From an uncultured virus (IMG/VR IMGVR_UViG_3300020414_000984) (Duplodnaviria > Heunggongvirae > Uroviricota > Caudoviricetes > Crassvirales), in the IMG/VR virus record IMGVR_UViG_3300020414_000984: DNA of 64,000 nucleotides, one strand, 5' to 3'. The translations under genes and the position numbers were made by a program. The notes under the pieces were generated by a model. The model was not told the origin of the DNA and did no database searches. It saw only the letters and a list, made by a program, of their open reading frames with translations. Below are positions 23,601-43,227 of the stretch, one piece after another (positions within the stretch are counted from its first letter, which is position 1; every line of letters starts with the position of its first letter).

Positions 23601-24008
23601 GAAGCTATTAGAAGAAGCGAATTAAAAGGCAAAAAAGATTATTATAAAGTAGTTAATGAATTATTTGACATTTCACCACCATTTTCTTCAAAAATTAGTA
23701 AAGGGTATCAAGTAGCTTATATTGAAGAATTCCAACAAAAATTAATAAAAAAAGAAGGTATAAGTTTAGATAATCCTAGATTAATGTCACTTGCTTTAAC
23801 ATTATCAGCTGGTTTTAATATACCTGCAGATAGAGCTATTAGAACAATAAATGAAGCTAGAGAAGTTGCAGATGCTGATTTAGCAACTTGGCAAAGAATT
23901 ATGATTTTATTAGGGTGGCCAAAATGGCAAATTGACCCTGAACCGAATAAAAAAGAAAAGAAAAAAAATCCATGGACAAAAAATACATGGGGAAAGAAAA
24001 CTTGGTAA
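17664..24008 (+). CDS. Giant polyvalent virion (ejection) protein: zincin HEILH, sigma70 region-2-like and PD-(D/E)xK-like domains
   Basis: 2114 aa; HEILH at 19704-19718; GVIDLIRDYNPNSGVPLAAYI at about 20316-20380; TDITL..VEVK at about 21350-21420; helical C-terminus. Confidence 0.7.
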   Translation: MYEINGRIYTLQQLEQAAENYGMDFDSYFARMQEKGLKEAENFQLGPAGAETNVGSKNDTVSKSENSFSGLLDSIYESNIGQNYIAPILKGVAASPGSPVIGIAGQFASENIAKPVLEEVGEGFVGVYDAVTQPDETSLDEENIGMGYAVGRGLTEDPKGFFLNALEAFPKFADTSIEMTIDNAKDLEETAGIYALSWALQFATGKDKLSGQEKKGLQKIVQAGIEAKDAAFDTGIGKFFELLLPKPVQLLQTSRKEIDNTRDFLQKYISQHETTITEEIAKGFDADWATIGGRIFADGFGSLPYTLASMNPYTALAMGVGLAGDKFIQEFNEDPDKSLFRLGINAAGTGAIEIADAYLTRRFLRSANVLKGGGKQAEKAVKEMQKGFKEKLLDVIGVGFKEGGTEIAQAVATRINDRITFDAKIENGKITFGKGSIFGEVDENGNVIKGSIMKDVYSIVDEGIIGFFTGAKITGYSKAVTGNQILKERAEMLLMPASIRKELSGLYKKLIEREVKIKELQDKGADPKVIGGLKSQQKRLGKKINALKSKSRLVLDNLSGTDLQKYAANVDTVNSLNENKDDKFIAKEIDVLLKENDAMFDKALKENYGEDMTFAEIAATQVGLNITKAKNESDFKKKVKNLTGKTIKDASGMNGVFIGNGKVIINEKVALKQGAVGVGSHEILHPILNAMIGDAKAQQTIVEDFKDTLTRRQRRWTDKEMTRQGKKEGTSEYYTEYINVFSEGIRKNRIGFDLNFGEQIKEWVTKLFVGKGFNNIDFRSGRGVYNFMKAYAQSMKDGKLNEQVLGALDIKAVKEAKAIGDNIQKSEISNEIQEIYDNKGFDGAFEIIEKYEGMANKHAQRFRDVPGFATNSDILVDEILTGRRGVIDLIRDYNPNSGVPLAAYINKFLPSRVIEVANRVLDSNFKTDITEERGIAQTTEEVQEDTQRPSLRLSLNLTQDVVDKVVDAVVKSFGTKLPAVTSKEFKKKLIANYKTFLKPTMANMMGTQQKFESFLNDNFKLIYEILPQSIINKRFKPFAEPVLDENGKQLRERTAQGNAIFRKKDITKKEFVEYFIGENVGKSTRGARKTALAEALAQEVAFDATLDVLRDPKVFEKIKQIGQTQEIDIADNYLSQVAAKIERGVDFQFSEEANNAEALYEIREAILDGTIQQKFPHVYKQIVTEARKQGLKIPRAFKGVTFETYQVKVINDKQSVTLTAFGDGKMGPTGTDITLRINKDGKKANVGVEVKLNGSDQYGSGSVKFDKNGIATTTTVELTEILPEIMSNIDVYYQMHEMAKELQNDPNLEFKFPQTNYTNKTWQILKRKFPAKLRNQRILLKDGVQKIIDHYNNKGVYYIYIGGKGMYYMGSNPNNLNVPAFDGQAGVYVSVRSSGRNKTTGNPNLVFRGSNFLVNKGKDLADATLFSSPKFEEKVITNKFQASSETLNTEFNDIIEQTTGVGAQKTFSDVKGRRRGKRVTGGIFNAIIPYSAEDFKGLMYALIPKGKQGDRALEWINHNLMKPFAAAEENIDRERALVTARWKNLKKELKGVATKLLKKETPDGDYTFEHAVRVYIWDKQGMDIPGLTETDKKMLVNYVLNNSELREFADKVINVVGVAGYGKPRAGWDVSNISGDIYANLRTGVREYHLKRWKENRDAIFSKENMNKLRSIYGDRYIEALENILKRMETGRNRMTGNRQVDNWLNWLNASVGSIMFINRRSSVLQLISNVNYINWSDNNPLKAGAAFANQPQYWKDFMRILNSDYLVNRRGGNKININENEIAELAEAGKGGLQGAISWLLDKGFILTRMADSAAIASGGAGFFRNRTNTYVKQGMSLQEAETKAFQDFRELTEEAQQSSRADKISMEQAGGLGRVILAFANTPMQYARLQKRALQDLVNGRGDWKTNMSKVAYYGFVQNFMFNALQSALIAAGFDDDLDDERRNKKYRDVRKGMTDSILRGLGVRGAVISGIKNAVMEAIRRSELKGKKDYYKVVNELFDISPPFSSKISKGYQVAYIEEFQQKLIKKEGISLDNPRLMSLALTLSAGFNIPADRAIRTINEAREVADADLATWQRIMILLGWPKWQIDPEPNKKEKKKNPWTKNTWGKKTW

Positions 24009-27807: not shown

Positions 27808-27845
27808 TAAATAAAGGGAAGCAATTAAGCCTCCCTTTTTTTATT
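27808..27845. terminator. Bidirectional terminator at the convergence of the + and - arms
   Basis: aaataaagggaagc-aattaa-gcctcccttttttatt with A and T tracts on both sides. Confidence 0.8.
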
Positions 27846-29565
27846 ATCCATCACAAGCTAAACAATTCTCATCCATAGCTTGCTGAGCAATATCTCCCCT
27901 CAGTACAGATTCTGTACGAACATAATACAAAGTTTTAATACCTTTTTTCCACGCTTCTAAATGAACTTTATTAATCCATTTAGGTGTAGCCACAGAAGGA
28001 AATGCTAAATTTAAACTAACAGATTGGTCAATATATTGTTGACGTATACCTGCTTGATTAACTAATTCTAGCTGATTAATTTCCTTGAAAGTTTTGAATA
28101 TTTCTTTGACGGGTATATCGTGACTTCCGTAGGTAATTTTGTCTAATGCTTTGATACCTTGGATTGACCCTCCGTCTTGAAGAATTTTGTTCCATATCTT
28201 TTCGTTATCTAATTTGTGTTTTCTTAATATCTTTTTTAATGTAGGATTTTTTCTTATAAAGGTTCCTTTCGCAGACTGCTCAGTAAAAATATTAGCGGCC
28301 CAAGGCTCAATACCAGGACTAACGTTACCACTGAGCTTACTATTAGACACAGTAGGAGCAATAGCCCTGAGATGCGTGTTACGCATACCAGTACCACGGC
28401 ACCATAACGGTTCACCATATGTTTCAGCCAAACCACGACTTGCTCTTTCACTTTCAATTTTAATTTGTGAAAATATTCTACGAGTTTCAAACTGCGCGAG
28501 TAAACCTTCAAAAGGAATACCTTTGTTTTGTAAATAGGTATGCCAGCCAAGAACACCAAGTCCAAGAGCTCTACCCTTTTCAGCCGACCTAACAGCGTTT
28601 TCAAATCCATATCTATATTTTGCTCTTTGTATAAATTCTTCAAGTACTCCATCCAAGAACCAAACCGCATCATGAATGATATTTGTGTTTTTCCATTCTT
28701 CATATTTTGCTAAGTTTAACGATGATAAACAACAAACAAAACTATGTGACTCATCTGTATGTAATGTTATTTCACTACATATATTAGTCATATGTACTTT
28801 TAAAGCGTTGTCTTTGTACGCTGTTGGATTTTGTTTGTTAGTGTTTCCTTTAAAAAGTATATAAGGTTCTCCAGTCGCTTTACGTTTTTGTAATAACTTA
28901 CTCCATTTTTTTCTTGCGACTTTATCGCCTCCTTCAAGTCTTCGCATGAATTTATCGCCGACGACAGCGCATTGATGTAAGTTAAGCGATTGTCTGTTGA
29001 TGTCTCCTTTAGGTTCTCTAATTTCGAGCCACTCTTCAAAATCATCGTGGTCAATGTTAATATTAACGCTAGCTGCTCCTCTTCTAACGGATCCTTGATT
29101 TGTTGCAAGAATAGTTGAATCGTATATTTTACAGAAAGGCACCACTCCGTCGCTTGTTCCATTTCCAGTTATTTTTGCGCCGGCGGGTCTAATCATATTA
29201 ATTCCGATACCTACTCCACCGCCGTGCTTAGCGAGTAGCATCATCTCTAAATTCTTTTTACCAATATCTTGTATGCTATCAGCAACATCAATTCCAAAAC
29301 AACTAATAGGTAAACCTCTATCTATACCTGTGTTAGAAAGCACTGGGGAAGCTAAACATAACCAACCTTTCCATATATATTCAAAAAAAGTTTCAGCTAA
29401 TTCTGGACGATATAAACGCTTAGCAACAGTTGTTGCAACACGCTCATAAGCATCTTTAGGTGACTCACCATTATATAAATAGCCTCCTGTTATTGTTTTT
29501 TTATAAACATCTGTATCACCCCAAGCAGGATAATCAACTCCTTTTTTCCAATCTTTATTCCACAT
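27844..29565 (-). CDS. nrdA: Class I ribonucleotide reductase alpha subunit (short, no ATP cone)
   Basis: LPISCF, GGGVG, TNICSE, APTVSNS, KTLYY and C-terminal CLAC motifs. Confidence 0.95.
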   Translation of the reverse strand: MWNKDWKKGVDYPAWGDTDVYKKTITGGYLYNGESPKDAYERVATTVAKRLYRPELAETFFEYIWKGWLCLASPVLSNTGIDRGLPISCFGIDVADSIQDIGKKNLEMMLLAKHGGGVGIGINMIRPAGAKITGNGTSDGVVPFCKIYDSTILATNQGSVRRGAASVNINIDHDDFEEWLEIREPKGDINRQSLNLHQCAVVGDKFMRRLEGGDKVARKKWSKLLQKRKATGEPYILFKGNTNKQNPTAYKDNALKVHMTNICSEITLHTDESHSFVCCLSSLNLAKYEEWKNTNIIHDAVWFLDGVLEEFIQRAKYRYGFENAVRSAEKGRALGLGVLGWHTYLQNKGIPFEGLLAQFETRRIFSQIKIESERASRGLAETYGEPLWCRGTGMRNTHLRAIAPTVSNSKLSGNVSPGIEPWAANIFTEQSAKGTFIRKNPTLKKILRKHKLDNEKIWNKILQDGGSIQGIKALDKITYGSHDIPVKEIFKTFKEINQLELVNQAGIRQQYIDQSVSLNLAFPSVATPKWINKVHLEAWKKGIKTLYYVRTESVLRGDIAQQAMDENCLACDG

Positions 29566-29566
29566 A

Positions 29567-29815
29567 TTATTTTAAAAAATGATTAATCCAAGCTGCTAAA
29601 CCGTTAAGATTTAGAGCCACTAAGTTCCATTGCTTACGTGATGATACTTGTACTATCACGCAAATAAAACCTATTATAAATAATATAGGTTCTAATGTCC
29701 ATTGACCAGCCATCAAAAAAGCTGCACCCGCATATCCAACACGAGATGCAAACTTTTGATAGCTTGTTAATTTATTTGTATAGACTAGTAGTCTAAGTAG
29801 TTTTCTTCTTACCAT
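29567..29815 (-). CDS. Small membrane protein between nrdB and nrdA
   Basis: Hydrophobic segments; fills the gap exactly. Confidence 0.6.
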   Translation of the reverse strand: MVRRKLLRLLVYTNKLTSYQKFASRVGYAGAAFLMAGQWTLEPILFIIGFICVIVQVSSRKQWNLVALNLNGLAAWINHFLK

Positions 29816-30768
29816 ATATCTTCAAAATCTTCACCTTCATTAGCCTTGCTATAATCAGTTGGCCTAATTGCAAAAAAGTCGGTATGAGTGTGACCACCAG
29901 TAAGATGATAAAACCAGTTAAGATTATTTGCACAGCCTTCATCATAAGTAAAAACACCGTTATAACCCAGTTCATTAAGTTTTTCATTTAATCTTTTCTT
30001 TATAAAGTGTTTTAAATCTTTTGCTTTAAGATTTTCAATATCGCCCATTTCAAACATCTTATCAATATATTTCATTTCAGCATCGTGCATTAAGCTTGCT
30101 GCTTCTATTATATCTTTTTCAGCATCCTTTTTAAGAGTTGGTATTTCTTCACACATATGTCTAAATAATCTACAACCCATTTTACTATGTAGTGATTCAT
30201 CTCTTACAGACCATTTCATTTGTTGTCCTATTCCTTTGAGTAGATTACGTAATTGAAAAGAATATAAAACAGCGAAAGCACTATATAAACTAACACCCTC
30301 TGCGAATGCGGAAAAGATTGCCAAGCTACGACCGATGCCCACAGGATCATTCCCGTTATAACCAACCAAATTATCAAATCGTTCTGCCGTAGCAGGTTCG
30401 TGTAAAAACGCTTCAAAGTCTTCAAGGCCCAATGTTTCATTTAAATAACTATAAGCTACAGCGTGTATTGTTTCTTGTGAGCCGAACATCATAGCCATTT
30501 GCTGTATCTCATGTTTTGGAAACCATGATACGACTTTTTGTGTCCAATAATCTGACACAGCACATTCAGTTTGTGCAAATCCTAAAAGGATATTGCCAAC
30601 TAAATGCTTTTCTTCTTTTGTTAATTTTTCATTCCAGTCTTTAACATCACCTGACATAGGTATTTCTGTATGTAACCAAAAAGCCTGAGCTTGTTTTAAC
30701 CAGCCTTCTGTGTAATACTCAGGGTACTCAAAAGGTTTGTACGGTATTCTTTCTTCAAATAATCCCAT
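29809..30768 (-). CDS. nrdB: Class I ribonucleotide reductase beta subunit
   Basis: FW...E, ETIHAVAY, AEG, DESLH and DFF motifs. Confidence 0.95.
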   Translation of the reverse strand: MGLFEERIPYKPFEYPEYYTEGWLKQAQAFWLHTEIPMSGDVKDWNEKLTKEEKHLVGNILLGFAQTECAVSDYWTQKVVSWFPKHEIQQMAMMFGSQETIHAVAYSYLNETLGLEDFEAFLHEPATAERFDNLVGYNGNDPVGIGRSLAIFSAFAEGVSLYSAFAVLYSFQLRNLLKGIGQQMKWSVRDESLHSKMGCRLFRHMCEEIPTLKKDAEKDIIEAASLMHDAEMKYIDKMFEMGDIENLKAKDLKHFIKKRLNEKLNELGYNGVFTYDEGCANNLNWFYHLTGGHTHTDFFAIRPTDYSKANEGEDFEDIW

Positions 30769-30769
30769 T

Positions 30770-30922
30770 TTAATTATAAGGCATTGTAAATGCTACATCC
30801 ACAAATGGGACGTAAAGCACATAAGTTAATTGATTTTCTTCTTCATAGGCTCTACAGCCAAACAATATACCTGGATAAAATCCTAATGATAAACTCCAGT
30901 TCCATTTTTCTTTATTCTCCAT
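30770..30922 (-). CDS. Small hypothetical protein (MENKEKWNWSLSLGFYPGILFG...)
   Basis: ORF track; internal ATG chosen to abut the upstream ORF. Confidence 0.6.
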   Translation of the reverse strand: MENKEKWNWSLSLGFYPGILFGCRAYEEENQLTYVLYVPFVDVAFTMPYN

Positions 30923-30923
30923 A

Positions 30924-31073
30924 TTATTCTTCATTAAATACTGCGTAAACATTTGCTTTTCGTTTTTTACTAAGTTTTACTGTAGCAATTAACTCTTTGC
31001 GTTCTTTTATTTCATCTTCTTTTACGGGATAGTATTTTGGGTTTTTACTATTTAATTTTCTTTTTTTAGCCAT
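30924..31073 (-). CDS. Small basic protein MAKKRKLNSKNPKY... (49 aa)
   Basis: Read from sequence; fills the gap. Confidence 0.55.
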   Translation of the reverse strand: MAKKRKLNSKNPKYYPVKEDEIKERKELIATVKLSKKRKANVYAVFNEE

Positions 31074-31236
31074 AACATTTTATTGAGTATTTATTATGTA
31101 TAAACATTAAGTCCTTCCACCTTAAACCTCCTCTTGATTTAATGCTCCACTTAATAAACGTATCTATTTTACGTTCTTTATACTTTCTCCTTGCAATGTG
31201 CTTGGAGTTTGAAGTATTTCTATTACTTTGTCGCAT
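31066..31236 (-). CDS. Small basic protein (56 aa) overlapping the endonuclease 3' end
   Basis: Read from sequence: MRQSNRN...IARRKYKERKIDTFIKW. Confidence 0.4.
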   Translation of the reverse strand: MRQSNRNTSNSKHIARRKYKERKIDTFIKWSIKSRGGLRWKDLMFIHNKYSIKCYG

Positions 31237-31649
31237 TCTTTTTGATTTTGGGGTTTAAATAATTTATAGTTAGGAAATTGTTGCATAACTAATCTTTTGA
31301 ATAGTTTCCATCGCATTGGAAATGATTCATTAGGTCTTCCTTTAGTTTCAATAATAAAGTCTTTACCAATAAAATCTGGTGTATATTTAATAGGTAAGAT
31401 TCTTTTCTCACCTCTATTTTTAAAATCTCCTTTACTATTTGATTGTCTTTCCCAACATTCATTTTCAAAATGAAATCCATTTAACAACACAAAGGTTTCA
31501 CCTTCATAGCTAGCTTTAATATGTGCTTTTTTCAAAGCTTGATACATATATCTTTCTAACCCGGAAGCGAAGGTGATACCATCGTATGTTACTTTTTTCG
31601 AAACTACAGGACCTCTTTTTCTTCTTCTTTTATAAGTCTTCTTCCTCAT
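31164..31649 (-). CDS. T7 endonuclease I-like Holliday junction resolvase
   Basis: FASGLE, YTPDF and IIETKG (PD-(D/E)xK) motifs. Confidence 0.85.
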   Translation of the reverse strand: MRKKTYKRRRKRGPVVSKKVTYDGITFASGLERYMYQALKKAHIKASYEGETFVLLNGFHFENECWERQSNSKGDFKNRGEKRILPIKYTPDFIGKDFIIETKGRPNESFPMRWKLFKRLVMQQFPNYKLFKPQNQKECDKVIEILQTPSTLQGESIKNVK

Positions 31650-31899
31650 CGAATTGTGTTCTTTTTAGCATACATTCTTCAATCTCATCACACAATACAA
31701 GTTTTGCTTTTTCAATATAATTAACAGCATCCATTAATTCTTCTTGTATGTGTGTTAGCCAGACTTCAAGAGATTGATCATCATCATTTAACGTAACGCC
31801 ATATTTTTTATAGCCTACATCTGAACGTGATTTAATCTTATTAATAACACGTTCAATTACTTTATCTCTAATCTTACTCATCTTTGACAAATGTTCCAT
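31630..31899 (-). CDS. All-alpha NTP-pyrophosphatase-like protein
   Basis: RSDVGYKKYG and WLTHIQEELMDAVNY (EExxD) motifs. Confidence 0.55.
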   Translation of the reverse strand: MEHLSKMSKIRDKVIERVINKIKSRSDVGYKKYGVTLNDDDQSLEVWLTHIQEELMDAVNYIEKAKLVLCDEIEECMLKRTQFDEEEDL

Positions 31900-32644
31900 T
31901 AATCATTTTACCAGTTCTATCTGATATTTGATTATATGCTGATGCTATACACGTTTCAATTCTAACGTTTCTTTGTTCTGCTAAGTTAGTTAACACAACT
32001 ACCATATCTCCAATAGCATCAACAAATTCAGCTTGATCATCTTTTAGCATTGCTTTAGCTAATTCACCAGCTTCTTCTTGTAGTTTAATGTATTGAGTTC
32101 TAGCATCACCATTTTCATATATACCTCTTACTTTAGCCCAATTTCTAATTGAATCAAATATACTTTGTTTAGATTCTATATATTCTGCCAAGCTTTCTAA
32201 ACTATTAGCATTATTAAAGAATTCAATCATTGCCTTATTATATACATAACATCTATTCTTGTTATACATTGATTCATGAGCATTATCTACTATCCAGTGA
32301 GCTAAGTCTGTATCTAATGATACTTTGCCAAATTCTGTTTTCCAGTTCATTCCTAAATTATCCATTAATCTACCTTTAAGTTTATTAACGGGAACCGGAA
32401 AGGTTGTGGTTTGTTCGGTTACATTTATTTTCATTTTAATTAAATTTTTATAAAGTTTATTATCAATCTTATACCCATAAGACTGTTGAAGTTCTATCTC
32501 TTTATCCGATATATAATCTATATCGTCTGACTGATCAAGAACTTCGTATTCTCCAGGCTTATAGCCCTGCGTTAGCGTAACCCTGTTATTAAGATTACGT
32601 GTAACGCCGATTTTTTTACCTGGAATATGATAAATATAATACAT
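31874..32644 (-). CDS. MazG-like pyrophosphatase with N-terminal GIY-YIG-like segment
   Basis: C-terminal KLQEEAGELA, DAIGD and R.GKMINGTFVK; N-terminal YYIYH..KIGVT..L..R. Confidence 0.8.
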   Translation of the reverse strand: MYYIYHIPGKKIGVTRNLNNRVTLTQGYKPGEYEVLDQSDDIDYISDKEIELQQSYGYKIDNKLYKNLIKMKINVTEQTTTFPVPVNKLKGRLMDNLGMNWKTEFGKVSLDTDLAHWIVDNAHESMYNKNRCYVYNKAMIEFFNNANSLESLAEYIESKQSIFDSIRNWAKVRGIYENGDARTQYIKLQEEAGELAKAMLKDDQAEFVDAIGDMVVVLTNLAEQRNVRIETCIASAYNQISDRTGKMINGTFVKDE

Positions 32645-33487
32645 TATTTTCCAACGTTTAGCTTTGCCTTTATTGGAGACAAAGGATTATAATTAATTAT
32701 TTTAAATTGTTTTTTCTTTGGTATCTTTAATCCAGGGTTACTTCTGTGTCCTCCTTTATATATAATACCGTCGCCAATTATTTCAAGTTTAGGTAATTTA
32801 ATATTACTTACATCTCTATAAATATATTCTTCTGCCGCTTCAAGATGATTTAAATACAAGTGACAATCACCAAGTTGTGCAATAAGTTTACCTGGTTTAT
32901 ATTCTGTATTGTGACATAACAATTCAAGTAATATGCCATACATTGCAATATCATAAGGTAAACCTAAAAATACATCTGCAGAACGTTGAATCCATATTAA
33001 ATCCATTTTGTCATTATTTATATTTACCTGTAAACCATAATGACATGGCGGCAAAACCATATTCTTTAATTTATCTGCTCTCCAAGCATTTATAATATGT
33101 CTTCTTGATGATGGGTTAACACTAATATTATATATTAAATTCATAAGTTGATCATAGCCGTTAAAGTCACGCCATTGTGCACCATAAACTGGCCCAAGCT
33201 TTCCATCTTTACGTCCAGATCTTTCATAATCATCATCCCAATAATGAACACCGTTTTCATGTAAATAACTTAGGTCTGTTCTGCCTTGTAATATCCATAA
33301 CAATTCAGTAATTGCATGATTAAAATATATTTTCTTTCCAACTAATAAAGGAAAGCCAATAGACATATCATGCTCTAGCTGTCTACCAAAAACAGATTTA
33401 GTACCAACTCCGGTTCTATCTGATTTTGTAGATGCATTTAATAAGCTTGCCATTAAAGCTCTATATTGATTTTCTATATTTGTCATA
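32644..33487 (-). CDS. thyA: Thymidylate synthase-family protein (Asp at the base-specificity site)
   Basis: DRTGVGT, ELLW, LGPVYGAQWR, LPPCH, QRSADVFLGLPYDI and DCHLY motifs; likely start MTNIEN. Confidence 0.9.
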
Positions 33488-33745
33488 ATAATATTTACAC
33501 ATTCTATAATATTCAGACCATATTGTATGTTTATCATAAATAGACGGGGATATATTTCCTCTCTCGCCTCTTTTATATGGTCCCATTCTAATTTCTATTT
33601 TCCAAGCCTGATTGTCTTCTTTCATTCCTAACGGAGATATTCGTATATTATTTCTTACACAATAATTATATGCTGCTCTTTCTTCTTTATTAGGAAGATA
33701 CTGTGGCATTCTATAATTTTTTCTTTTTCCGTATATACTTTTCAT
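33461..33745 (-). CDS. Hypothetical protein
   Basis: 94-aa ORF abutting the helicase stop. Confidence 0.65.
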   Translation of the reverse strand: MKSIYGKRKNYRMPQYLPNKEERAAYNYCVRNNIRISPLGMKEDNQAWKIEIRMGPYKRGERGNISPSIYDKHTIWSEYYRMCKYYYDKYRKSI

Positions 33746-35467
33746 TTATTCCCAGGGCATTGGTTCTTCTTCTAATTTTAAGGGTTCGTGCGGTATAAAG
33801 CAACCTGAACGCGGCTCCCATTTAAAATGAGCCTCAGCTCCATTCTCGCCGAGATTTTGAAACTTAACTTTAAGGACTTTTGCCTTGACAGTTTTTGCAT
33901 CATAATCGCGGTGTACGAGAAGGCCATGATAACTCGCGTCATACCATTCACCTCCCCCTTTGATATTATACATCGTTGGTTCTTCAATTTTTCCATCACT
34001 TGTTTTATACATTTTAGTTGGGTGGGCTACAATAAATACTAATACATCAAACTTCTTTGCAAATGTTTCAATCTTAGTTAAGTATTCCATTGTATATCTA
34101 TTTACATCTTCAGTTTTAGCATCTACATCTCTAATCTTATTAAATGGGTCTATAACAAGGCATTTAATACCTTTACGTTTAACTAGTTCTGCACCTTTAC
34201 GCAATACTGTTTCAAGAGTATAACGTTCCATATCGATAAAGAAAAAGTTATCGTTAACGTGTTCTGCTACTTGTTTCCATTTAGCTGTGCCAATATCAGA
34301 TTTTCGTGGCATATCTTGCCAGACTTTACGCATTAACTTATGTGCATGTAAATATGTAGGAGCATTCTCAGGTGATGCAAATGCTGTTTTCCAGCCATAG
34401 TTATTATTATAACCTACAACCATTTGATCGACAAAATCAGACTTCCCACTGCTAGGAATACCAGTAACAGTAATAAACTGTCCAGTATAAGTGCTGAATA
34501 TTTCGTCGAAGTTTTGTATACCAATTTGGTACCCTTTCTTAAAACCGTTTTGTACAAAGTCTGTAACTTCATGTTCTATATCTTTAAAAGTTGTTACATT
34601 TTCTAATGGCACTGGTCTACACTCACTAATTGTTTTAGCTAAGTCTTCTTTACCATATTTAATTAAATATTCATTAGCATCTTTACAATCAACAAAATTT
34701 GTTAAGTAACAAGTCTCTGCTCCTAACCTTCTAATTAATTCTGTTTGTAATGCTATACCAGCTTCATCAGCGTCTACTGCTAGAATTATCTTTTCTTTAT
34801 CTTCAAAGTAATCAATACAGTTGTCAAGATAATCTAAATTGTTATGATTTAATGTAGCTCCGTTTGGTACTGATATTACATTATGTATTCCTGCTTCATG
34901 ATAAGACAGTGCGTCCATCTCACCTTCAACAATAACACAAGTGTCATAACCCACTATACTATTTAAATTATAAAAGACTTTCTCTGCACCTTTATATAAT
35001 TTAAAATGCTTACGTCCGTCTCTATATTTTATATTGATAAGCTCATCACCTATCATGTAGTTGAATTTAATTGTGTTTTCAACCTTGCCTGTTTGTGGCA
35101 TGAATTCTGGGCCTTCAGATACATTCATTTCTTTTAATGTATCTTTTGATATGCCTCGCTGTTCAAACCATTCAATTACTTTACTACTAACGGGTTTATG
35201 TGTTTTTGTAGAATAATCTGGTTTAATATATTCTTTATCACCGCCACCTTTACGTTGATAAGTATGTAATTGAAATGTTGAGCTACAGTTGTGACAAGTA
35301 CCAAGACCACGTTCCCAATCATAACTAGCACATTTTTGTTTCCTGTTTTCAGGCTTGCGGTTATGTGAACACAGGGGACAAATCCCCTGCGTTGCACCAA
35401 CCTTCAAATCATGCTGGTTAAACTGGTCGATTAAGAATCCATTAATCTCCGTGTTGTTTACTTGCAT
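33746..35467 (-). CDS. Primase-helicase (T7 gp4/Twinkle-like)
   Basis: Zn finger CPLC...CHNC, TOPRIM VEGEMD and DADEAG, KDANE, Walker A GIPSSGKS, Walker B LVIDP, VAHP. Confidence 0.93.
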   Translation of the reverse strand: MQVNNTEINGFLIDQFNQHDLKVGATQGICPLCSHNRKPENRKQKCASYDWERGLGTCHNCSSTFQLHTYQRKGGGDKEYIKPDYSTKTHKPVSSKVIEWFEQRGISKDTLKEMNVSEGPEFMPQTGKVENTIKFNYMIGDELINIKYRDGRKHFKLYKGAEKVFYNLNSIVGYDTCVIVEGEMDALSYHEAGIHNVISVPNGATLNHNNLDYLDNCIDYFEDKEKIILAVDADEAGIALQTELIRRLGAETCYLTNFVDCKDANEYLIKYGKEDLAKTISECRPVPLENVTTFKDIEHEVTDFVQNGFKKGYQIGIQNFDEIFSTYTGQFITVTGIPSSGKSDFVDQMVVGYNNNYGWKTAFASPENAPTYLHAHKLMRKVWQDMPRKSDIGTAKWKQVAEHVNDNFFFIDMERYTLETVLRKGAELVKRKGIKCLVIDPFNKIRDVDAKTEDVNRYTMEYLTKIETFAKKFDVLVFIVAHPTKMYKTSDGKIEEPTMYNIKGGGEWYDASYHGLLVHRDYDAKTVKAKVLKVKFQNLGENGAEAHFKWEPRSGCFIPHEPLKLEEEPMPWE

Positions 35468-35477
35468 TTAATTTAAT

Positions 35478-35786
35478 TTAAAATGGTAAATCATCTACCG
35501 GCTGTGATACTGGTGCTGCTGCTGCCGGTTGATCTGTTCGAGGTGCAGCTGGTACGTTCTGGTCATTTGTCCAAACAACTTGAACATTACCTAAATAAAC
35601 TTTAGGTACTTTAGCATCACGCTCCTCTTTCGTTTGAGCTATTACAACTGGTCCTTGATTGCCGAACTGGTCGACTTCATCATTAAGGGTAATTGTAATA
35701 GGTAAGTATTTACCTTTCTTGCCATCAATAATTTTTGTTTTATCAATGTTATTAAGGTTAATACTTGTTTTAATAATACTTGCCAT
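35478..35786 (-). CDS. Probable single-stranded DNA-binding protein
   Basis: Compact beta domain, linker and acidic DDLPF tail. Confidence 0.7.
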   Translation of the reverse strand: MASIIKTSINLNNIDKTKIIDGKKGKYLPITITLNDEVDQFGNQGPVVIAQTKEERDAKVPKVYLGNVQVVWTNDQNVPAAPRTDQPAAAAPVSQPVDDLPF

Positions 35787-35965
35787 TATGCGTATTGATT
35801 TATTTGGTTAAACATTCTTTGCAACTGATCTTTCTTTACACCAGTTACTCTTCTGAAATTATCTACAGCTTTCAAATGATTTTGATTTTTGTAAAAATTA
35901 CTTGCAGAAGTTTCTAATCCTGTTACACTACAGATTTTCTTTTGAGTTTTTCTAGTTCTTGCCAT
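35786..35965 (-). CDS. Hypothetical protein MARTRKTQKKICSVTG... (59 aa)
   Basis: Read from sequence; TAATG coupling with the SSB gene. Confidence 0.65.
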   Translation of the reverse strand: MARTRKTQKKICSVTGLETSASNFYKNQNHLKAVDNFRRVTGVKKDQLQRMFNQINQYA

Positions 35966-35972
35966 AATTTAA

Positions 35973-36705
35973 TTATAATGTTAAGTTAATAAAATATTGA
36001 GATGGGTCAAATCCATCGGTTTTGTAGAATAAATCGTAAGCTTCTACTGCTCTTTTAACCTTGTCTTTACCTGATTCATAAAAATCGGGTGAACAATCTA
36101 CTACTGCTATTTGATGAGTATTCTTATCTATAACAACAAATACGAATTCATAACCAAATAATGTACTATATATGTATGCTTGACTATCGTAATTCCACCG
36201 GTAAGCAGAACGCCTGAAAGAATTTATATCTGAGGTAGTCTTTAAGTCAATCACAAGTTTATCATCATGATTAACTATATCAGCTTTACCTTTCCACATA
36301 ACTCCTTCAAGCTCTGCAATACCTGGCTTCTCATACTCAACATCAATACCACGAATAAGTCCGCGACATATATCATTTTCCAATACTTTGGTGGTCATTA
36401 ATTCTATTTTGTCAACTTCATGTTGTAATAAACACAACTCTCCGCCTGACATTTCTTTGTAAGCCTTAGTGTTCCTAGTTGACGAAGGTATTACTCGGTA
36501 TTTCTTCAACTTATTTGGTTCAAGTATAGCGGTGTGAAAATATCCGCCAACAAGAAACGCTGGGCTAGGCTTAGATTGTTCTCCAAGCGCTAAAGGGTTA
36601 GTTAATAAAGTCCTAATGTCACTATTACTTAAATATTGTTTACCAAATTCGCCATAATAGTTTTCATCATTTCTTAATTTTTCAATAACCTCTTCTTTGT
36701 TCATT
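35973..36705 (-). CDS. PD-(D/E)xK exonuclease (RecE/ExoVIII-like)
   Basis: LSNS, G..FHTAILEP, KGKADIV, DLKTT and YDSQAYIY motifs; likely start MNKEEV. Confidence 0.85.
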
Positions 36706-36723
36706 ATCCAAATTGATTCGTGT

Positions 36724-37302
36724 TTAGCTTGTAGCTTCAGCATTCTTTACAGCAACTTTATTTTCAACATCTAATAATGTTTTCTTTTGTGCTGCTGTTA
36801 AATCATACTTAGCTGTGACAGCATCAATTAAGCCGCCAGATTTTATATAATTAATAGCTTTAGTTACATCAGTAAGTTTTTGTTTTGTAGTTGCTTTACT
36901 TGTAACTTTACCATGATTATTTGTGGCATCACTATCTTGAGTGTCATCAATTAATAATAGGTTTCCTAACGCATATTTTTTAGCATAACTCGACGCCGAA
37001 CCAAATTGTTGTGGTGTCTGCATACCTTTCTGGTTCAGATCCACTCCAACTATCGCAACAGCAGTTAACTCCATACCCTTATCATCAGTTAACCTTGCAG
37101 TTGACTGAATAATAGGCATAGGGTCTGTAGCAATTAATTCTTCATTAATTGTAACTGCAATTCCTAACTCGTCGTTAAACGGTTTAATAGCTTCGAGAAT
37201 GTCTTCGGCAGAGCGAAAGTAATATTTGCCGAATGAATTAAATCTACTCTTCTTCGATTTAAATTTTGTTTGAATTTTTGCTAGTTTCTGGTATATGGTC
37301 AT
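36724..37302 (-). CDS. ERF-family ssDNA annealing protein
   Basis: KYYFRSAEDILEA and QQFGSASSYAKKYAL...DD.DSD motifs. Confidence 0.9.
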   Translation of the reverse strand: MTIYQKLAKIQTKFKSKKSRFNSFGKYYFRSAEDILEAIKPFNDELGIAVTINEELIATDPMPIIQSTARLTDDKGMELTAVAIVGVDLNQKGMQTPQQFGSASSYAKKYALGNLLLIDDTQDSDATNNHGKVTSKATTKQKLTDVTKAINYIKSGGLIDAVTAKYDLTAAQKKTLLDVENKVAVKNAEATS

Positions 37303-37311
37303 AATAATATA

Positions 37312-37320
37312 ATTACATAT
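37312..37320 (-). promoter_or_regulatory. Putative middle promoter (AYANGTRAT)
   Basis: Minus strand atatGTAAT, 9 nt, then the ATG of the ERF gene; just downstream of the sigma gene. Confidence 0.55.
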
Positions 37321-37356
37321 TTTTAATTAAACTTAAACGGTAATATTCACCGTAAC

Positions 37357-38121
37357 TTAAAGGTAATCAAGCACTTGCGAGGAATCAACGTTATCGATTA
37401 GACATTGTATAGCATCGCGTTTTATCTGAGAAATACGCACATGAGCTGTGTTTACATTAATATCTAACTTAGCCGCAATTTCGTTTGCAGAGTGCTTATC
37501 ACAGTCAAGACCGTAACTTAATCTAAGTACTTCTTGCTGCTTAAAATCTAAATGCTTTTTCATTAGTTGTAATAGATAGGCATTGAGTAAATGTATGTTA
37601 TATGGCTCTGATTTATCAATAACTTGATAAGCCATATTATCATCATCATTTGGTTTATCATCAATACTTGCAAATACACTATTAAAAAACATTGCAACCA
37701 TCTTTTCATCTTTTGGGTTGCGTCTTATTTCATTTAGTTTATGTTCAGGAATGCGTACGCCGCCCCTATTAATATCTACGGCTCTACGTACGGCTCCTTT
37801 AATTCTTTTGGATAGAAATGATTTAATTGTTTTTTCTTGGTCATCAGACTCAGCTAAAACAGTTCGGTCTAATTTACTAACAGCTGCTGTAAGCCCTGCT
37901 GCTCCTTCTTGTAATAAATCATTTATACTTAATACACCAGACGCTTGGTCTGACGTTGATTGTTTTCTCGCTAATGTTTCAACTAACGGTAAGAAGTTAA
38001 TTACTATTTCTTCATTTGTTAAATATGTGTAATCACCATCAATTGGTTTTCTTACACGTTTAAGTGCTGCTTCAACTTCTGTTTTATATCTAACATAATT
38101 AGCTATGTTATACTTCCTCAT
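37357..38121 (-). CDS. Phage sigma70-family factor
   Basis: Region 2 (FLPLVETLARK, DLLQEGAAGL, RIKGAVRRA), VRIPEH, and region 4 (QQEVLRLSYGL...EIAAKL...VRISQI). Confidence 0.92.
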   Translation of the reverse strand: MRKYNIANYVRYKTEVEAALKRVRKPIDGDYTYLTNEEIVINFLPLVETLARKQSTSDQASGVLSINDLLQEGAAGLTAAVSKLDRTVLAESDDQEKTIKSFLSKRIKGAVRRAVDINRGGVRIPEHKLNEIRRNPKDEKMVAMFFNSVFASIDDKPNDDDNMAYQVIDKSEPYNIHLLNAYLLQLMKKHLDFKQQEVLRLSYGLDCDKHSANEIAAKLDINVNTAHVRISQIKRDAIQCLIDNVDSSQVLDYL

Positions 38122-38756
38122 AATTCTTTATTTAGTATTTCTTTTTCTTGTTTTAATTGGTTACCCATATTTCTGTATATGGTTCGTGTAGTACACTTTA
38201 ACAACTTGGCTAACTTAGCTATAGTTATTTTTTGTTTACTATCGTTTAAATCTATCATGCATTGGTATATATCTTCTTCACATATTCTTTTACTTCTACC
38301 AATCAATTTTCCAACTATACTTAGCTTTTCACTTAATGATAAACCAGTATAATCTTTAAATATTACTTTACGTATACGATTGCGAGGTGGGGTATCGCCT
38401 GCTCCTAAAACTTCATTAATCATGCTGTCAAGTATTTTTTGTTTAATAAAAAAAGTAACAAACCCATTATCTTTATTTGCTATAAATTTAAAAACTTGTC
38501 GCATATCATCTTCAAGTGATATTTCATCCCCTTCAATGCCGTCATAATTCAAATAGTATAAAACTAAAAAATGCCATTTCAACGACTTATACGTAGTAAT
38601 CTTTGCTTTGCTTCTAAATAAACTATAGCATTGATACGTACCTTCCGCGTAGTAATCGTATTGATCAGTACTTTCGGTAGGCTTATCTGTGATAGGGTCA
38701 CGTCTATAATTTATTCGCCTATCATTTAGCCACTTCATATTTCTTTCATGTGACAT
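38118..38756 (-). CDS. DNA-binding protein with C-terminal HTH (replication initiator/regulator candidate)
   Basis: ITIAKLAKLLKCTTRTIYRNM helix-turn-helix. Confidence 0.65.
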   Translation of the reverse strand: MSHERNMKWLNDRRINYRRDPITDKPTESTDQYDYYAEGTYQCYSLFRSKAKITTYKSLKWHFLVLYYLNYDGIEGDEISLEDDMRQVFKFIANKDNGFVTFFIKQKILDSMINEVLGAGDTPPRNRIRKVIFKDYTGLSLSEKLSIVGKLIGRSKRICEEDIYQCMIDLNDSKQKITIAKLAKLLKCTTRTIYRNMGNQLKQEKEILNKEL

Positions 38757-38796
38757 TTGCTTCTTACTATTTATTTATTATTAGCTTTTGTCGCTC
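38749..38796 (-). repeat. (T/C)GACA-N~35-TGTCAC element, copy 1 (over the HTH gene start codon)
   Basis: Minus strand gcgacaaaag...ataaatagtaagaagcaaATGTCAC. Confidence 0.6.
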
Positions 38797-38881
38797 TGCG
38801 TTTTTTAAACGCTTTAATTTTATCTTTTATCCCCTTATAATTAGTTGTTACTAAATGGGTTGCTAGTTTTCTTCTACTCAT
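38771..38881 (-). CDS. Small basic peptide (36 aa)
   Basis: MSRRKLATHLVTTNYKGIKDKIK...; ATGA overlap with the upstream ORF. Confidence 0.4.
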   Translation of the reverse strand: MSRRKLATHLVTTNYKGIKDKIKAFKKRRATKANNK

Positions 38882-39114
38882 TTTCTATCGTGTTTTACAT
38901 TACCGTAAATAATCAATTGTATATCATCATCTTTATACACTGATTTCTCAGGGTAATTTAGGTATCTATTTATTATTTGTATATCTTTATCCAGCGGTAA
39001 ATTGTAATTTATGTATATCGCTGTTACTAGAGACGAATTGATTGCTATCAATAGTATTATAATAAGTTTCGATAACCTCTCTAGGAACTGTGTTGTAATC
39101 GTAAGGTGTTTCAT
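38878..39114 (-). CDS. Small membrane protein
   Basis: Hydrophobic LIIILLIAINSSLVTAIYI; likely start MKHLT. Confidence 0.5.
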   Translation of the reverse strand: MKHLTITTQFLERLSKLIIILLIAINSSLVTAIYINYNLPLDKDIQIINRYLNYPEKSVYKDDDIQLIIYGNVKHDRK

Positions 39115-39562
39115 TTTTGTTACAGATTTTTCGTTTGTCAATAATATAATAACGCCAGTAACCGTGTATAGCATTTACCATTTTGTATTCGTCTGGCATA
39201 CACTGTGGTGGGTCTGTCCACTCATAGCTAGTTATATTAGCAGGTGGTGTCGCTAAGAAATCTCTACATTTAATTATAGTGAGATGCTCTTTACCATATC
39301 GTTTAGTATATTCTTTACCCAATGCAATCATATGGTCATATAACCACATATAATTTGGTATAGAAGTTCTACACCATATAGTTGATGGGTGATTAAGGTG
39401 AGCCTGTTTGTAAGGTATATGTAACTTTTGTTCTGAACTACCATACACGTGGTGTGCAGTACAAAGCATTTGAGCAGACTCTAATATCATTTTTACTTTA
39501 TGCTTATCGTAAACATAAGACGCTGCTTTTGCGGGGTCGTGGTGTAAGAAAAATATATTCAT
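38987..39562 (-). CDS. Pyrimidine-dimer DNA glycosylase-like (DenV superfamily)
   Basis: MNIF.L..DP...A....DKH..KMILESAQML, HLNHPS.IW, EY..RYGK.H and PPQCMPD motifs. Confidence 0.85.
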   Translation of the reverse strand: MNIFFLHHDPAKAASYVYDKHKVKMILESAQMLCTAHHVYGSSEQKLHIPYKQAHLNHPSTIWCRTSIPNYMWLYDHMIALGKEYTKRYGKEHLTIIKCRDFLATPPANITSYEWTDPPQCMPDEYKMVNAIHGYWRYYIIDKRKICNKNETPYDYNTVPREVIETYYNTIDSNQFVSSNSDIHKLQFTAG

Positions 39563-39819
39563 AGTTTTTTTTGTAAATAGTTAATTCGTTTATTAATTAC
39601 TGCAGCTTTTTCATATTCTTCAGTTACTAAATACTCTTGTAATATTAATTTTAGATTATTTATTTCTTGTTTAATATCGTCTTCAGGTGTTTTAATACTT
39701 TCGTATATATCATTATTAATAACATCTAGCCCATAAGTTGCAGTATCTGGGTCTAAAAATTCTTCGTATAAATCTTTCTTTATACGATTATATAATGCTT
39801 GGTATTCTTCCTCGCTCAT
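39559..39819 (-). CDS. Small protein with C-terminal UVR (UvrB/C) motif
   Basis: EEYEKAAVINKRI; start just downstream of an early promoter. Confidence 0.6.
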   Translation of the reverse strand: MSEEEYQALYNRIKKDLYEEFLDPDTATYGLDVINNDIYESIKTPEDDIKQEINNLKLILQEYLVTEEYEKAAVINKRINYLQKKL

Positions 39820-39822
39820 ATT

Positions 39823-39856
39823 TATATTATCCATAGGTTTTCGTGTTTAGTCTGTA
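39823..39856 (-). promoter_or_regulatory. Early promoter motif, copy 1
   Basis: Minus strand TACAGACTAAACACGAaaacctaTGGATAATATA. Confidence 0.75.
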
Positions 39857-40398
39857 GTTAGTATATCAATTATTTTTTGAGCACTAGCTCTAATTTTATT
39901 GTAATCTGATATTTCTTTTGCATTTTTAAATTTACCTTTAGGTATTTCTGGAACATCACCGAATCTAGTTTTGCCATTTTTAAAATCAGTATATGCCATA
40001 TCACTCTTATACTTTTCAATTATTTTATTAGCGGGTAAAACAAATATACATTGCTCTGTATATCTATCGTGACAAGCAACCATGGTTCTATCTTTATCAC
40101 CACTCCATATTATATATGTATATTGGTGGTCTACATTATCTACGTCGGAATATAAGTAGCAACTGTCATAATACATATCATATACTAATTTAGATGCCAT
40201 TGCCGAACCATCTTGTCTGTTATTTACATTTAACCAATTAGCTATTTGTACCGCTTGCCATTCAGGATAACCGTCATGATGATGATACATATGTACATAA
40301 CTGTGGTTGGTTACATGTTCAGGGTGTATAGCAAGGCCATAACTACTACCCCTTGCGTGTCTTCGGTCTACGACCATAATTAAATTTCTAGTTGCCAT
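39847..40398 (-). CDS. Early hypothetical protein (YxHxDGYP family)
   Basis: MATR...YHHHDGYPE motif. Confidence 0.7.
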   Translation of the reverse strand: MATRNLIMVVDRRHARGSSYGLAIHPEHVTNHSYVHMYHHHDGYPEWQAVQIANWLNVNNRQDGSAMASKLVYDMYYDSCYLYSDVDNVDHQYTYIIWSGDKDRTMVACHDRYTEQCIFVLPANKIIEKYKSDMAYTDFKNGKTRFGDVPEIPKGKFKNAKEISDYNKIRASAQKIIDILTTD

Positions 40399-40654
40399 AT
40401 TCTATATTTTCGTTATTAGTTACCATCCATTCGCAATCACCTAATCTGTGACCTGCACCTAATAAAAATGCTTCACAGGATTCATGGTCTGGATTCCATT
40501 CATTATCTTCATTACATAGTTTTGTAATATTATATCTATATACTTTACCGTCATTAAAATCTAGTATAAATATATATTTAGCTCGTGCTATTCTGTGATG
40601 AGCCGGTCTTATATCTGTACCGTGCTCTAATTCGTATGCTTTACTTGTATTCAT
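40388..40654 (-). CDS. Early hypothetical protein
   Basis: ORF track; overlaps both neighbours. Confidence 0.6.
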   Translation of the reverse strand: MNTSKAYELEHGTDIRPAHHRIARAKYIFILDFNDGKVYRYNITKLCNEDNEWNPDHESCEAFLLGAGHRLGDCEWMVTNNENIEYGN

Positions 40655-41106
40655 TCTTCTTCGTATTTATATTCACCTGAGTCTAGTAATTCATCTTTGT
40701 ATTGGTCCCAAAACTCTTCATATATATCTTGCCACCACTCTGCTAGTCTATGGTTAAAATCATATTCCATATCATCCCATATATGATTTTCTATCCACAC
40801 ATCATTACCACTAGTTAATTCATCTACTGCCCTATCTGACCAGTCAGAATAATCTTCATAATAATAACCGTCTTGTGATACATATGGTCTATCCTCATGA
40901 GTACACCAAAATATATCATAACTATCACAAGTTGATTCACTATATATTTTTAAAGTCCATTTGTCATCTACAAAATCGCTTGTAGTATCTAGTTTACCAC
41001 CATATTCTGTTTCAATATATTCTAGTAACCAAGGACCATCAGGCTCTTCCATGAAGCCGTCCATTTCTAATTTTTCTTTGATTATTTCATCCGTTAAAAT
41101 TTCCAT
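40651..41106 (-). CDS. Highly acidic, aromatic-rich early protein
   Basis: D/E/W/Y-rich; real start MEILTD (the track ORF runs through the tRNA). Confidence 0.65.
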   Translation of the reverse strand: MEILTDEIIKEKLEMDGFMEEPDGPWLLEYIETEYGGKLDTTSDFVDDKWTLKIYSESTCDSYDIFWCTHEDRPYVSQDGYYYEDYSDWSDRAVDELTSGNDVWIENHIWDDMEYDFNHRLAEWWQDIYEEFWDQYKDELLDSGEYKYEEE

Positions 41107-41127
41107 AATTAATTGATTTTCAGTTAG

Positions 41128-41202
41128 TTGCGGGAGGTAGATTCGAACTACCGACCTTCGGGTTATGAGCCCGACGAGCTGACCAAACTGCTCCATCCCG
41201 CT
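41128..41202 (-). tRNA. Initiator tRNA-fMet (CAT)
   Basis: Cloverleaf AGCGGGA...TCGGGCT-CAT-AACCCGA...TTCGAAT...TCCCGCAA; three G-C pairs in the anticodon stem and a 1:72 mismatch; no encoded CCA. Confidence 0.93.
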
Positions 41203-41209
41203 ATAATAT

Positions 41210-41405
41210 TTTCGGGGGAAGAAACCCCAGCAGTCTCTTCTCATTACAGGTGATTCACATATCGGCACTTAGTCCCTAATGTGATTTGTCTTGGGAGTCA
41301 CCAACCCTTAAACGAGCCATTCACTTATGTGGTGTAACGGAATTTTACCGTACTTGGTTTGAACCACCGTGCTAAACTTGCACACCCTAATTAAGCTACT
41401 CGTCT
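41210..41405 (-). ncRNA. Putative structured non-coding RNA
   Basis: GC-elevated intergenic region with several nested helices (see finding). Confidence 0.5.
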
Positions 41406-41597
41406 CTATTTTCTTCGCCAAGCTTTGTGCACCGAAGCCGAAACTTCTGGTGACACAACTTGGATTGTATTACCGGTCTTGCCGTTGATAATTGGAACGT
41501 AACTATATTGTTGTATAGCACTGCAGGAGACACAATTACTATAACCTAAGGCGATACGACCAGCCGGTATTATATTTGAACATTTACATTTTTTCAT
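41406..41597 (-). CDS. Small zinc-finger protein
   Basis: CKC...IP.GR..LGY..CVSC. Confidence 0.65.
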   Translation of the reverse strand: MKKCKCSNIIPAGRIALGYSNCVSCSAIQQYSYVPIINGKTGNTIQVVSPEVSASVHKAWRRK

Positions 41598-41602
41598 ACA
41601 CA

Positions 41603-41636
41603 TATATTATCCAATTGAGTTCGTGTTTAGTCTGTA
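41603..41636 (-). promoter_or_regulatory. Early promoter motif, copy 2
   Basis: Minus strand TACAGACTAAACACGAactcaatTGGATAATATA. Confidence 0.75.
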
Positions 41637-41830
41637 CTTGGGTTAGCTTCTAACCAATTCAGCATATATTCAATTGTTCTTCTCATTATTGCTGTTTTTA
41701 CTTGTTGATAGTCGTCACCCTCTAAGTTTTCTATTTCAGGTATACCATCAACAGCCCAGTCAATTGAGTCGTCTAATTGTTCTAAACACACTTCGTGTAA
41801 GTATTCTGCTACTCTGTCTATTTCTTTCAT
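41627..41830 (-). CDS. Early hypothetical acidic protein
   Basis: ORF track; likely start MKEIDRV. Confidence 0.6.
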   Translation of the reverse strand: MKEIDRVAEYLHEVCLEQLDDSIDWAVDGIPEIENLEGDDYQQVKTAIMRRTIEYMLNWLEANPSTD

Positions 41831-41831
41831 T

Positions 41832-42454: not shown

Positions 42455-42475
42455 ATTATTATTATTTGTTACATT

Positions 42476-42722: not shown

Positions 42723-42795
42723 TTCTTAAATCTTTTATATATGTTATACTTCCGTCTTTATTTATTATGTACCAATTCTTATCTATACACATAGT

Positions 42796-43201: not shown

Positions 43202-43227
43202 TTTATTTATTTTTTTATAGTTACATA

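Follow-up and report, generated by a model that had tools for sequence, protein, structure and literature searches.

A thymidylate synthase homologue predicted to methylate deoxycytidine monophosphate in a lineage of uncultured marine phages

The 64,000-nucleotide stretch of DNA analysed here in full (the window; IMG/VR record IMGVR_UViG_3300020414_000984) comes from an uncultured marine phage and looks like a nearly complete tailed-phage genome, with a G+C content of about 32%. At 32644..33486 on its minus strand lies a gene of the thymidylate synthase (TS) family, a ThyA homologue of 280 amino acids (aa) plus a stop codon, in which the residue equivalent to the base-reading Asn177 of E. coli ThyA is an aspartate. 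We suggest that its product is probably a C5-methyltransferase of deoxycytidine monophosphate (dCMP) that feeds 5-methylcytosine (5mC) into the phage DNA. The principle is already established by phage Xp12, by engineered N177D enzymes and by virome work (MetaGPA); what is new is a lineage whose ThyA is canonical apart from one specificity residue, a cassette unlike that of Xp12, and an uncharacterised fusion protein as partner.

Membership of the ThyA family, already recognised in a preliminary description made from the letters of this stretch, holds over the full length of the protein. Pfam PF00303 (Thymidylat_synt) matches with an E-value of 2.5e-76 and 256.8 bits (cut-off 24.3) over profile positions 2-265 of 266. 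NCBIfam TIGR03284 (thymidylate synthase) matches with 227 bits (cut-off 108), so automatic annotation would name the gene thymidylate synthase. The best solved relatives found with HMMER are true thymidylate synthases (6auj, 5.5e-58; T4 td, 1tis, 3.6e-57, residues 7-277), the closest TS of a cultured phage is only 41% identical, and E. coli ThyA is 37% identical. The longest form of the open reading frame (ORF), which contains WIQRSADVFLGLPYDIAMYG and VLPPCHYG, extends over 32644..33537 on the minus strand; translation probably starts with the ATG at 33486-33484, because the homologues begin at MTNIENQY, and the end of 33487 given in the preliminary description is thus one base too far. The start is overlapped by 26 nt by a 94-aa ORF (33461-33745, minus strand) that lies between the primase-helicase gene and the ThyA homologue; this ORF has no family match and is 31-97% identical in close relatives.

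The aspartate is Asp179 of the window protein, encoded by a GAT codon at 32950..32952 (read 32952-32950 on the minus strand), where it had first been noticed. Its equivalence to E. coli Asn177, for which the preliminary description had asked for an alignment, was found by two methods in agreement: HMMER alignments to solved TS place the query PYDIAMY over PFNIASY, and a MAFFT alignment with E. coli K-12 ThyA (NC_000913.3) puts the aspartate at E. coli position 177. The asparagine expected there of a strict thymidylate synthase is therefore missing. The catalytic motif is intact, as had been claimed: Leu-Pro-Pro-Cys at 33043..33054 (minus strand) supplies Leu145 and the catalytic Cys148 (Leu143 and Cys146 in E. 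coli, whose numbering is used below for the ThyA homologue), and His149 follows. For comparison, reference sequences of E. coli ThyA, T4 td exon 1, T4 gp42 and the TS homologues of Xp12 (a 5mC phage) and SP8 (a 5-hydroxymethyluracil phage) were taken from public records, with accessions as given in the available text of PMC7653180. Relative to E. coli ThyA, residues R21, E58, W80, Y94, L143, C146, H147, Q165, R166, S167, D169, G173, H207 and Y209 are kept, and the TS C-terminal tail YNPLSPIKAKLNVGK is present. The departures among the key columns are N177 to Asp and W83 to Asp (T4 td exon 1 has Asn at 83), and the same pattern of kept and changed columns is seen in 8 of 8 aligned relatives. 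Column 177 holds Asp in T4 gp42, in accord with what the preliminary description had stated, and in the Xp12 homologue; E. coli ThyA has Asn there, as does the dUMP hydroxymethylase homologue of SP8. At column 143 there is Asp in gp42 and the SP8 homologue, Asn in Xp12 and Leu in the window protein; at column 147, Thr in gp42, Pro in Xp12 and His in the window protein; and at column 165, Leu in Xp12 and Gln in the window protein.

Published work gives these columns a meaning. According to the available part of PMC13326640, dCMP is the substrate selected by N177D in TS homologues, acidic residues at 143 accompany hydroxymethyl or hydroxy products, and D169N marks the flavin-dependent 5-hydroxy-dCMP synthases. 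In the accessible portion of PMC8670742, virome contigs with and without modified cytosine are told apart best by positions 177 and 147, and mutagenesis is cited in which N177D turns the preference towards dCMP. Of seven virome TS homologues that residue 177 predicted to methylate dCMP, five gave 5-methyldeoxycytidine (5mdC) in E. coli supplied with T4 gp1, as did the Xp12 enzyme that served as positive control (available text of bioRxiv 10.1101/2024.12.05.627091). Under the rules in that part of PMC13326640, the window protein has the signature of a methylase (equivalents of Cys146 and Asp177, a non-acidic Leu143, Asp169 retained). With Leu143 and a C-terminal tail it lacks the gp42-type signature (acidic 143, no tail), and with Asp169 and Leu143 it lacks that of the RB69 gp48-type 5-hydroxy-dCMP synthases (D169N with L143E). 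A preference for dCMP over deoxyuridine monophosphate (dUMP), the specificity first proposed for this gene, is supported by the aligned Asp177. The preliminary description had left 5-methyl and 5-hydroxymethyl products side by side; a 5-methyl product is clearly favoured, because Leu143, His147, Asp169 and the tail are kept, and the hydroxymethyl half of that alternative finds no matching signature.

The aspartate is a fixed feature of the lineage. A word-indexed homologue search scored 8000 candidates, 7943 of them at E <=1e-20, and listed 120 with 59-91% identity; among these 120, every one has Asp177, L-P-P-C-H and Leu at column 143, and one reads PYDF. An alignment-based scan of IMG/VR matched at least 598 stretches, of which 80 loci were kept for comparison: 76 have Asp in a PYDI or PYDF context and 4 have Asn. 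Asp177 has stayed the same while the clade diverged to about 51% identity, an argument for selection acting on an altered function. Further out, an exhaustive search of 50%-identity representatives found 13732 proteins at E <=0.001, and residue 177 in the best 150 of these is Asn in 127, Asp in 9 and Ser in 1, with 13 unreadable by pattern. In a midpoint-rooted FastTree phylogeny of 117 rows with SH-like supports, from which the 47 of the 150 representatives outside 240-345 aa were omitted, the query belongs to a clade made up wholly of Asp types (11 rows, support 98; 13 rows, support 96), and Xp12 and gp42 lie elsewhere. Asp-type representatives outside this clade are dispersed among Asn types, and at least five label changes are forced in the tree; the scatter indicates that the Asn-to-Asp switch probably arose several times, with the window clade as one such lineage. 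Nine other canonical-looking ThyA representatives with Asp177 have the flanking motifs PFDI, PFDM, PWDI, PFDL and PYDV, and most of them stand among Asn-type rows. The C-terminus of the window clade is 1-2 residues longer than that of E. coli ThyA or of Asn-type neighbours (…IKAPLSN), ending in …SVGK in 63, …NVGK in 18 and …LSVG in 13 of the 120 homologues.

Immediately downstream, the gene at 31874..32644 (minus strand) encodes a 256-aa protein whose start ATG overlaps the ThyA stop codon by one base. The preliminary description had called this gene and the next one MazG-like, which is correct for the C-terminal domain of the first; what it missed is a GIY-YIG-like domain at the N-terminus, the whole being a fusion of three domains. 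Its family was studied as 43 aligned sequences. Residues 1-63 (32456..32644, minus strand) may be of the T5orf172/MUG113 type, to judge by family profiles and fold search: T5orf172 and MUG113 are each matched in 34 of 43 members (T5orf172 at best with 2.5e-6), while the window copy itself reaches 12.4 and 12.8 bits, under the respective cut-offs of 20 and 22.3. The GIY-YIG clan includes both families. An AlphaFold2 model of the N-terminal half alone has a pLDDT (predicted local distance difference test score) of 91.9, and its four best fold matches are all GIY-YIG nucleases, at low Z: I-TevI (5.8), PD-T4-3 (4.7), UvrC (4.5) and T4 EndoII (4.1). PD-T4-3 is specific for 5-hydroxymethylcytosine (5hmC). 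Y5, R21 and E49, invariant in the 43 sequences, are candidates for the catalytic residues. Between the two ends lies a conserved alpha/beta domain (residues 76-150; 32195..32419, minus strand), confidently modelled within the same half, which has no recognisable relative, its best structural Z being 3.7. Foldseek gave no match at E <=0.001 for the full fusion model or for the N-terminal half.

Residues 160-256 (31877..32167, minus strand) form an all-alpha nucleoside triphosphate pyrophosphatase domain of the MazG type. Pfam PRA-PH matches at 3.5e-6 and 27.8 bits (cut-off 21.3), MazG is matched in 43 of 43 members, and E190, E191, E194, D209 and D213 are invariant in all 43 sequences. VIA-align superposes the domain on 1vmg (Z 10.3, root-mean-square deviation 2.4, 82 aa), on the S-2L MazG protein 7ody (9.4) and on the RS21-C6 dCTPase 2oie (8.0). 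Deoxycytidine triphosphate (dCTP) pyrophosphatases (6sqw DCTPP1, 2oie RS21-C6) are thus among its neighbours, but HisE and the S-2L dATP/dGTPase score equally well or better. The fusion was covered to at least 80% in 0 of 1251 matching cultured-phage records, in which the MazG end alone is common. The fusion-family profile matched nothing in Xp12, T4, the Flavobacterium Elemovirus NC_055854.1 or phage MW202828.1, in a search that had no positive control and so shows little.

The third gene, at 31630..31899 (minus strand), encodes a conserved 89-aa protein that matches only PHROGs of unknown function. It has an invariant core of R25, S26, G29, K32, Y33, V35, T36, L37, W47, H50, Q52, E53, E54, L55, D57, A58 and Y61. 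No Pfam family at E <=0.01, no NCBIfam match and no related PDB sequence by profile search was found for it, and its family of 25 members gave nothing meaningful at E <=1. Its neighbours in the ESM Atlas are viral hypothetical proteins only, with no Pfam family in common. The earlier reading of this protein as MazG-like was rejected, since hhalign against the fusion family gave a probability of 0.3% and the Pfam, NCBIfam and PDB searches showed no relation. A predicted complex of a dimer of the ThyA homologue with the 89-aa protein scored 0.00, which gives no verdict.

The three genes travel together. In all 22 close IMG/VR loci the ThyA homologue is followed by the fusion; in the wider set the fusion lies downstream of ThyA, overlapping, abutting or within 417 nt, in every one of the 76 Asp-type loci and in none of the 4 Asn-type loci. 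Of the 76 Asp-type loci, 71 have a homologue of the 89-aa protein: 65 carry it downstream of the fusion, 5 immediately upstream of ThyA, and the remaining one about 6 kb upstream. Wherever the locus extends that far, all 76 also carry the primase-helicase, DUF1064 and nrdAB neighbours of the window.

From these observations a pathway can be proposed. By replacing Asn177 with Asp, selection would have redirected a TS to dCMP in place of dUMP. The full machinery of methyl transfer remains, namely the catalytic Cys, the water-excluding and hydride-transfer residues and, closing the site, the C-terminal tail. The enzyme would convert dCMP and methylene-tetrahydrofolate to 5-methyl-dCMP and dihydrofolate, and 5-methyl-dCMP would be phosphorylated, presumably by host kinases, to 5-methyl-dCTP. 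The host replicase, recruited by a phage without a polymerase, would then use 5-methyl-dCTP, and 5mC would replace cytosine. The MazG domain, a likely dCTPase, would hydrolyse dCTP to dCMP, both removing the competitor and supplying the substrate; the GIY-YIG-like domain may cut unmodified DNA, a nuclease role that we regard as possible. We infer, rather than observe, the dCTPase specificity, the extent of cytosine replacement and a benefit against restriction. If the pathway runs as proposed, the host kinases and replicase must accept 5-methyldeoxycytidine nucleotides, and the host ThyA must supply deoxythymidine monophosphate. A bolder version, which we hold to be doubtful as a whole, would make the three genes a self-contained cytosine-replacement kit for phages without their own DNA polymerase or deoxynucleoside monophosphate (dNMP) kinase, composed of a nuclease-MazG fusion, a methylase ThyA and an 89-aa accessory subunit, so that abundant marine flavobacterial podophages would have full 5mC DNA made through host kinases and replicase.

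Several points weigh against a dCMP methylase acting in such a pathway. The 67 ORFs of the window, which were scanned against families, include no dCMP deaminase, dihydrofolate reductase (DHFR), dNMP kinase or DNA polymerase. Unlike in Xp12, then, neither a deaminase nor DHFR accompanies the ThyA homologue. A search for Walker A motifs, which cannot exclude a kinase of another fold, found the sole convincing motif in the primase-helicase and a stray match in an endolysin ORF. Xp12, by comparison, induces a 5-methyl-dCMP kinase. The replication genes of this seemingly near-complete genome are limited to the primase-helicase, an ERF gene, an exonuclease and a resolvase-like gene. In the published in vivo assays T4 gp1, a dNMP kinase, was supplied, and two of the seven virome enzymes gave no 5mdC (bioRxiv 10.1101/2024.12.05.627091, as far as its text is available). 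The Xp12 methylase itself has Asn143 and Pro147 rather than Leu and His, so that the rule linking a hydrophobic residue at 143 to methyl products rests mainly on true TS, and the longer C-terminus of the window clade could alter closure of the active site. The linkage of the three genes is real but belongs to one phage lineage; because one syntenic backbone is common to the 76 loci, it counts as one evolutionary observation and not as 76 independent ones. Single-domain MazG genes are, moreover, common in phages, and for many phages that have one we know of no DNA modification. Finally, the sequencing runs that match the window are ordinary marine metagenomes, with no methylation-aware run, bisulfite or other, among them. 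Beside these points may be set the Elemovirus NC_055854.1, in which a gene for a single-domain, MazG-like 'phosphoribosyl-ATP pyrophosphohydrolase' lies close to a DUF1064 gene and ThyA is lacking, so that within this phage group a MazG gene can occur without the methylase.

Among other explanations, we consider it unlikely that the enzyme is a dCMP hydroxymethylase in the manner of T4 gp42, in which water would capture the exocyclic methylene intermediate to give 5-hydroxymethyl-dCMP. Asp177 is common to both proteins, and the clade-specific extension of 1-2 C-terminal residues might loosen closure of the site; in L. casei TS, loss of the C-terminal residue blocks hydride transfer. Set against this, Leu143 is present in all 120 listed homologues where gp42 and the SP8 homologue have Asp (in agreement with the available part of PMC13326640), the tail that gp42 lacks is kept, identity to gp42 is only 24%, and no glycosyl-, carbamoyl- or other transferase for decorating 5hmC was found among the 67 ORFs. 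Somewhat less probable still is an enzyme that remains a thymidylate synthase, or has become a dual dUMP/dCMP methylase, serving as a nucleotide-supply gene beside ribonucleotide reductase. Such a role would suit a protein in which all checked residues except 177 and 83 are canonical and which passes the NCBIfam cut-off for TS, and it would suit the surroundings, a nucleotide-supply block with nrdA, nrdB and thioredoxin in a phage where no other ThyA, kinase or deaminase was found. It fits poorly with the distribution of the residue, Asn in 127 of the best 150 representatives (13 being unreadable) and Asp only in particular clades, with the invariance of Asp across the roughly 51% divergence of the window clade, and with the N177D mutagenesis cited in the available text of PMC8670742, which switched preference to dCMP.

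The least probable of the alternatives, in our estimate, is that 5-methyl-dCMP is made mainly as a route to thymidylate, with a host deaminase turning 5-methyldeoxycytidine nucleotides into deoxythymidine nucleotides and little 5mC reaching the DNA. Part of the 5-methyl-dCTP pool of 5mC phages is indeed deaminated to dTTP (bioRxiv 10.1101/2024.12.05.627091, available text), and the genome is AT-rich. In those phages, however, the deaminase is encoded by the phage itself, beside the TS gene, and none was found among the window ORFs; the route is more roundabout than the dUMP pathway of the host, and exclusion of dCTP accounts better for the linked MazG domain. We continue to favour a dCMP C5-methyltransferase as the probable function of the ThyA homologue.

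Compared with systems already described, the window protein resembles the engineered N177D TS, likewise a canonical TS with the base-reading Asn changed to Asp, for which dCMP methylation is the reported effect. It differs in being natural and fixed in a large phage clade, in having W83 changed to Asp and in its C-terminus longer by 1-2 residues, and its activity is a prediction. The T4 enzyme gp42 shares the TS fold, the catalytic Cys and Asp at the 177-equivalent column, but has Asp143, Thr147 and no TS tail. It works with a dCTPase, T4 gp56, and also needs the gp1 kinase and glucosyltransferases, neither of which was found in the window. The dCMP methyltransferase of Xp12 (MT664984, 45326-46195) has in common with the window protein the TS fold, the catalytic Cys, Asp177 and an L-P-Y-D string, but is only 26% identical and sits on a separate long branch. 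Its gene is flanked by those for dCMP deaminase, DHFR and a HAD hydrolase in a phage with its own DNA polymerase, where the window has instead the GIY-YIG/MazG fusion; the window locus is thus not a 5mC cassette of the Xp12/PaMx74 type. Xp12 replaces its cytosine by 5mC, according to the available text of PMC7653180. The MetaGPA virome TS (PMC8670742; bioRxiv 10.1101/2024.12.05.627091) are Asp177 homologues from uncultured phages, partly from coastal seawater, on contigs with modified cytosine. In the available text of the bioRxiv paper, PRA-PH/MazG ranks within the first five of the domains that co-localise with deaminase/TS cassettes on such contigs. The enzymes tested there were, in the same available text, chosen for a neighbouring deaminase, which the window lacks, and the available part of the MetaGPA supplementary text contains no sequence of the window's clade.

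Should the prediction prove right, a frequently sampled family of marine phages (at least 598 IMG/VR stretches; 14 marine runs) may hide 5mC genomes, because automatic annotation names the gene thymidylate synthase. This would matter for the behaviour of viromes in methylation-sensitive library preparation and restriction, and for the arms races between viruses and hosts in Flavobacteriia; it would also be a case from nature of a single residue redirecting an enzyme. In the GIY-YIG/MazG fusion there is a candidate for a new helper enzyme.

The host is likely a member of the Flavobacteriaceae, since the relatives of the window's terminase are mostly phages of Flavobacterium and Cellulophaga: it matches 87 cultured or complete phage records, with 68 from Flavobacterium, 15 from Cellulophaga, 2 from Tenacibaculum, 1 from Maribacter and 1 unclassified. 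The best match (MW202828.1) is 62% identical, and that of the Flavobacterium Elemovirus NC_055854.1 44%. As these closest checked terminase relatives both lack ThyA, no cultured stand-in was found, and the cultured-phage collection contains no DNA nearly identical to the window. A 95%-identical relative lies on a contig of 64,493 bp. The 9 kb at 28000-37000 are represented in 14 marine metagenome runs from 4 studies that contain at least half of its sampled words; the sample of origin may be among the best-matching runs. Contigs of four marine RNA-library runs (3 studies) also cover parts of 28000-37000, including pieces across 32051-33005, and some are 100% identical over 160-250 bases; DNA carry-over is possible and contigs are no proof of transcription, so that we draw no inference from them.

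The genome is divided between the strands. Terminase, portal and virion proteins are encoded at 86-24008 on the plus strand, which also carries lysis genes, a GroEL/GroES pair and very large tail-fibre genes. The block for replication and nucleotide metabolism occupies 27844-44788 on the minus strand, with nrdA, nrdB, the DUF1064 resolvase-like gene, the three-gene cassette, the primase-helicase, an exonuclease, the ERF annealing protein and a sigma-like factor. Within the structural block, an ORF of 2114 aa at 17664-24008 (plus strand) matches no family beyond a single weak PHROG, of unknown function, at residues 1204-1393. The phage GroEL (521 aa; phrog_5725, 1.2e-136) followed by GroES (85 aa) lies at 44983-46792 (plus strand), and the pair is also present in MW202828.1 and in Elemovirus NC_055854.1. 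On the minus strand, the sigma-70 region 4-like protein at 37357-38121 (phrog_351; Pfam Sigma70_r4, 2.2e-5) suggests that the phage redirects the host RNA polymerase. At 38987-39562 (minus strand), a 191-aa protein matches phrog_624 ('DNA binding protein') at 1.9e-47 and, weakly, the Pfam family of pyrimidine-dimer DNA glycosylases (6e-4; 20.6 bits, below the threshold of 23), and might be an enzyme of DNA repair or base excision.

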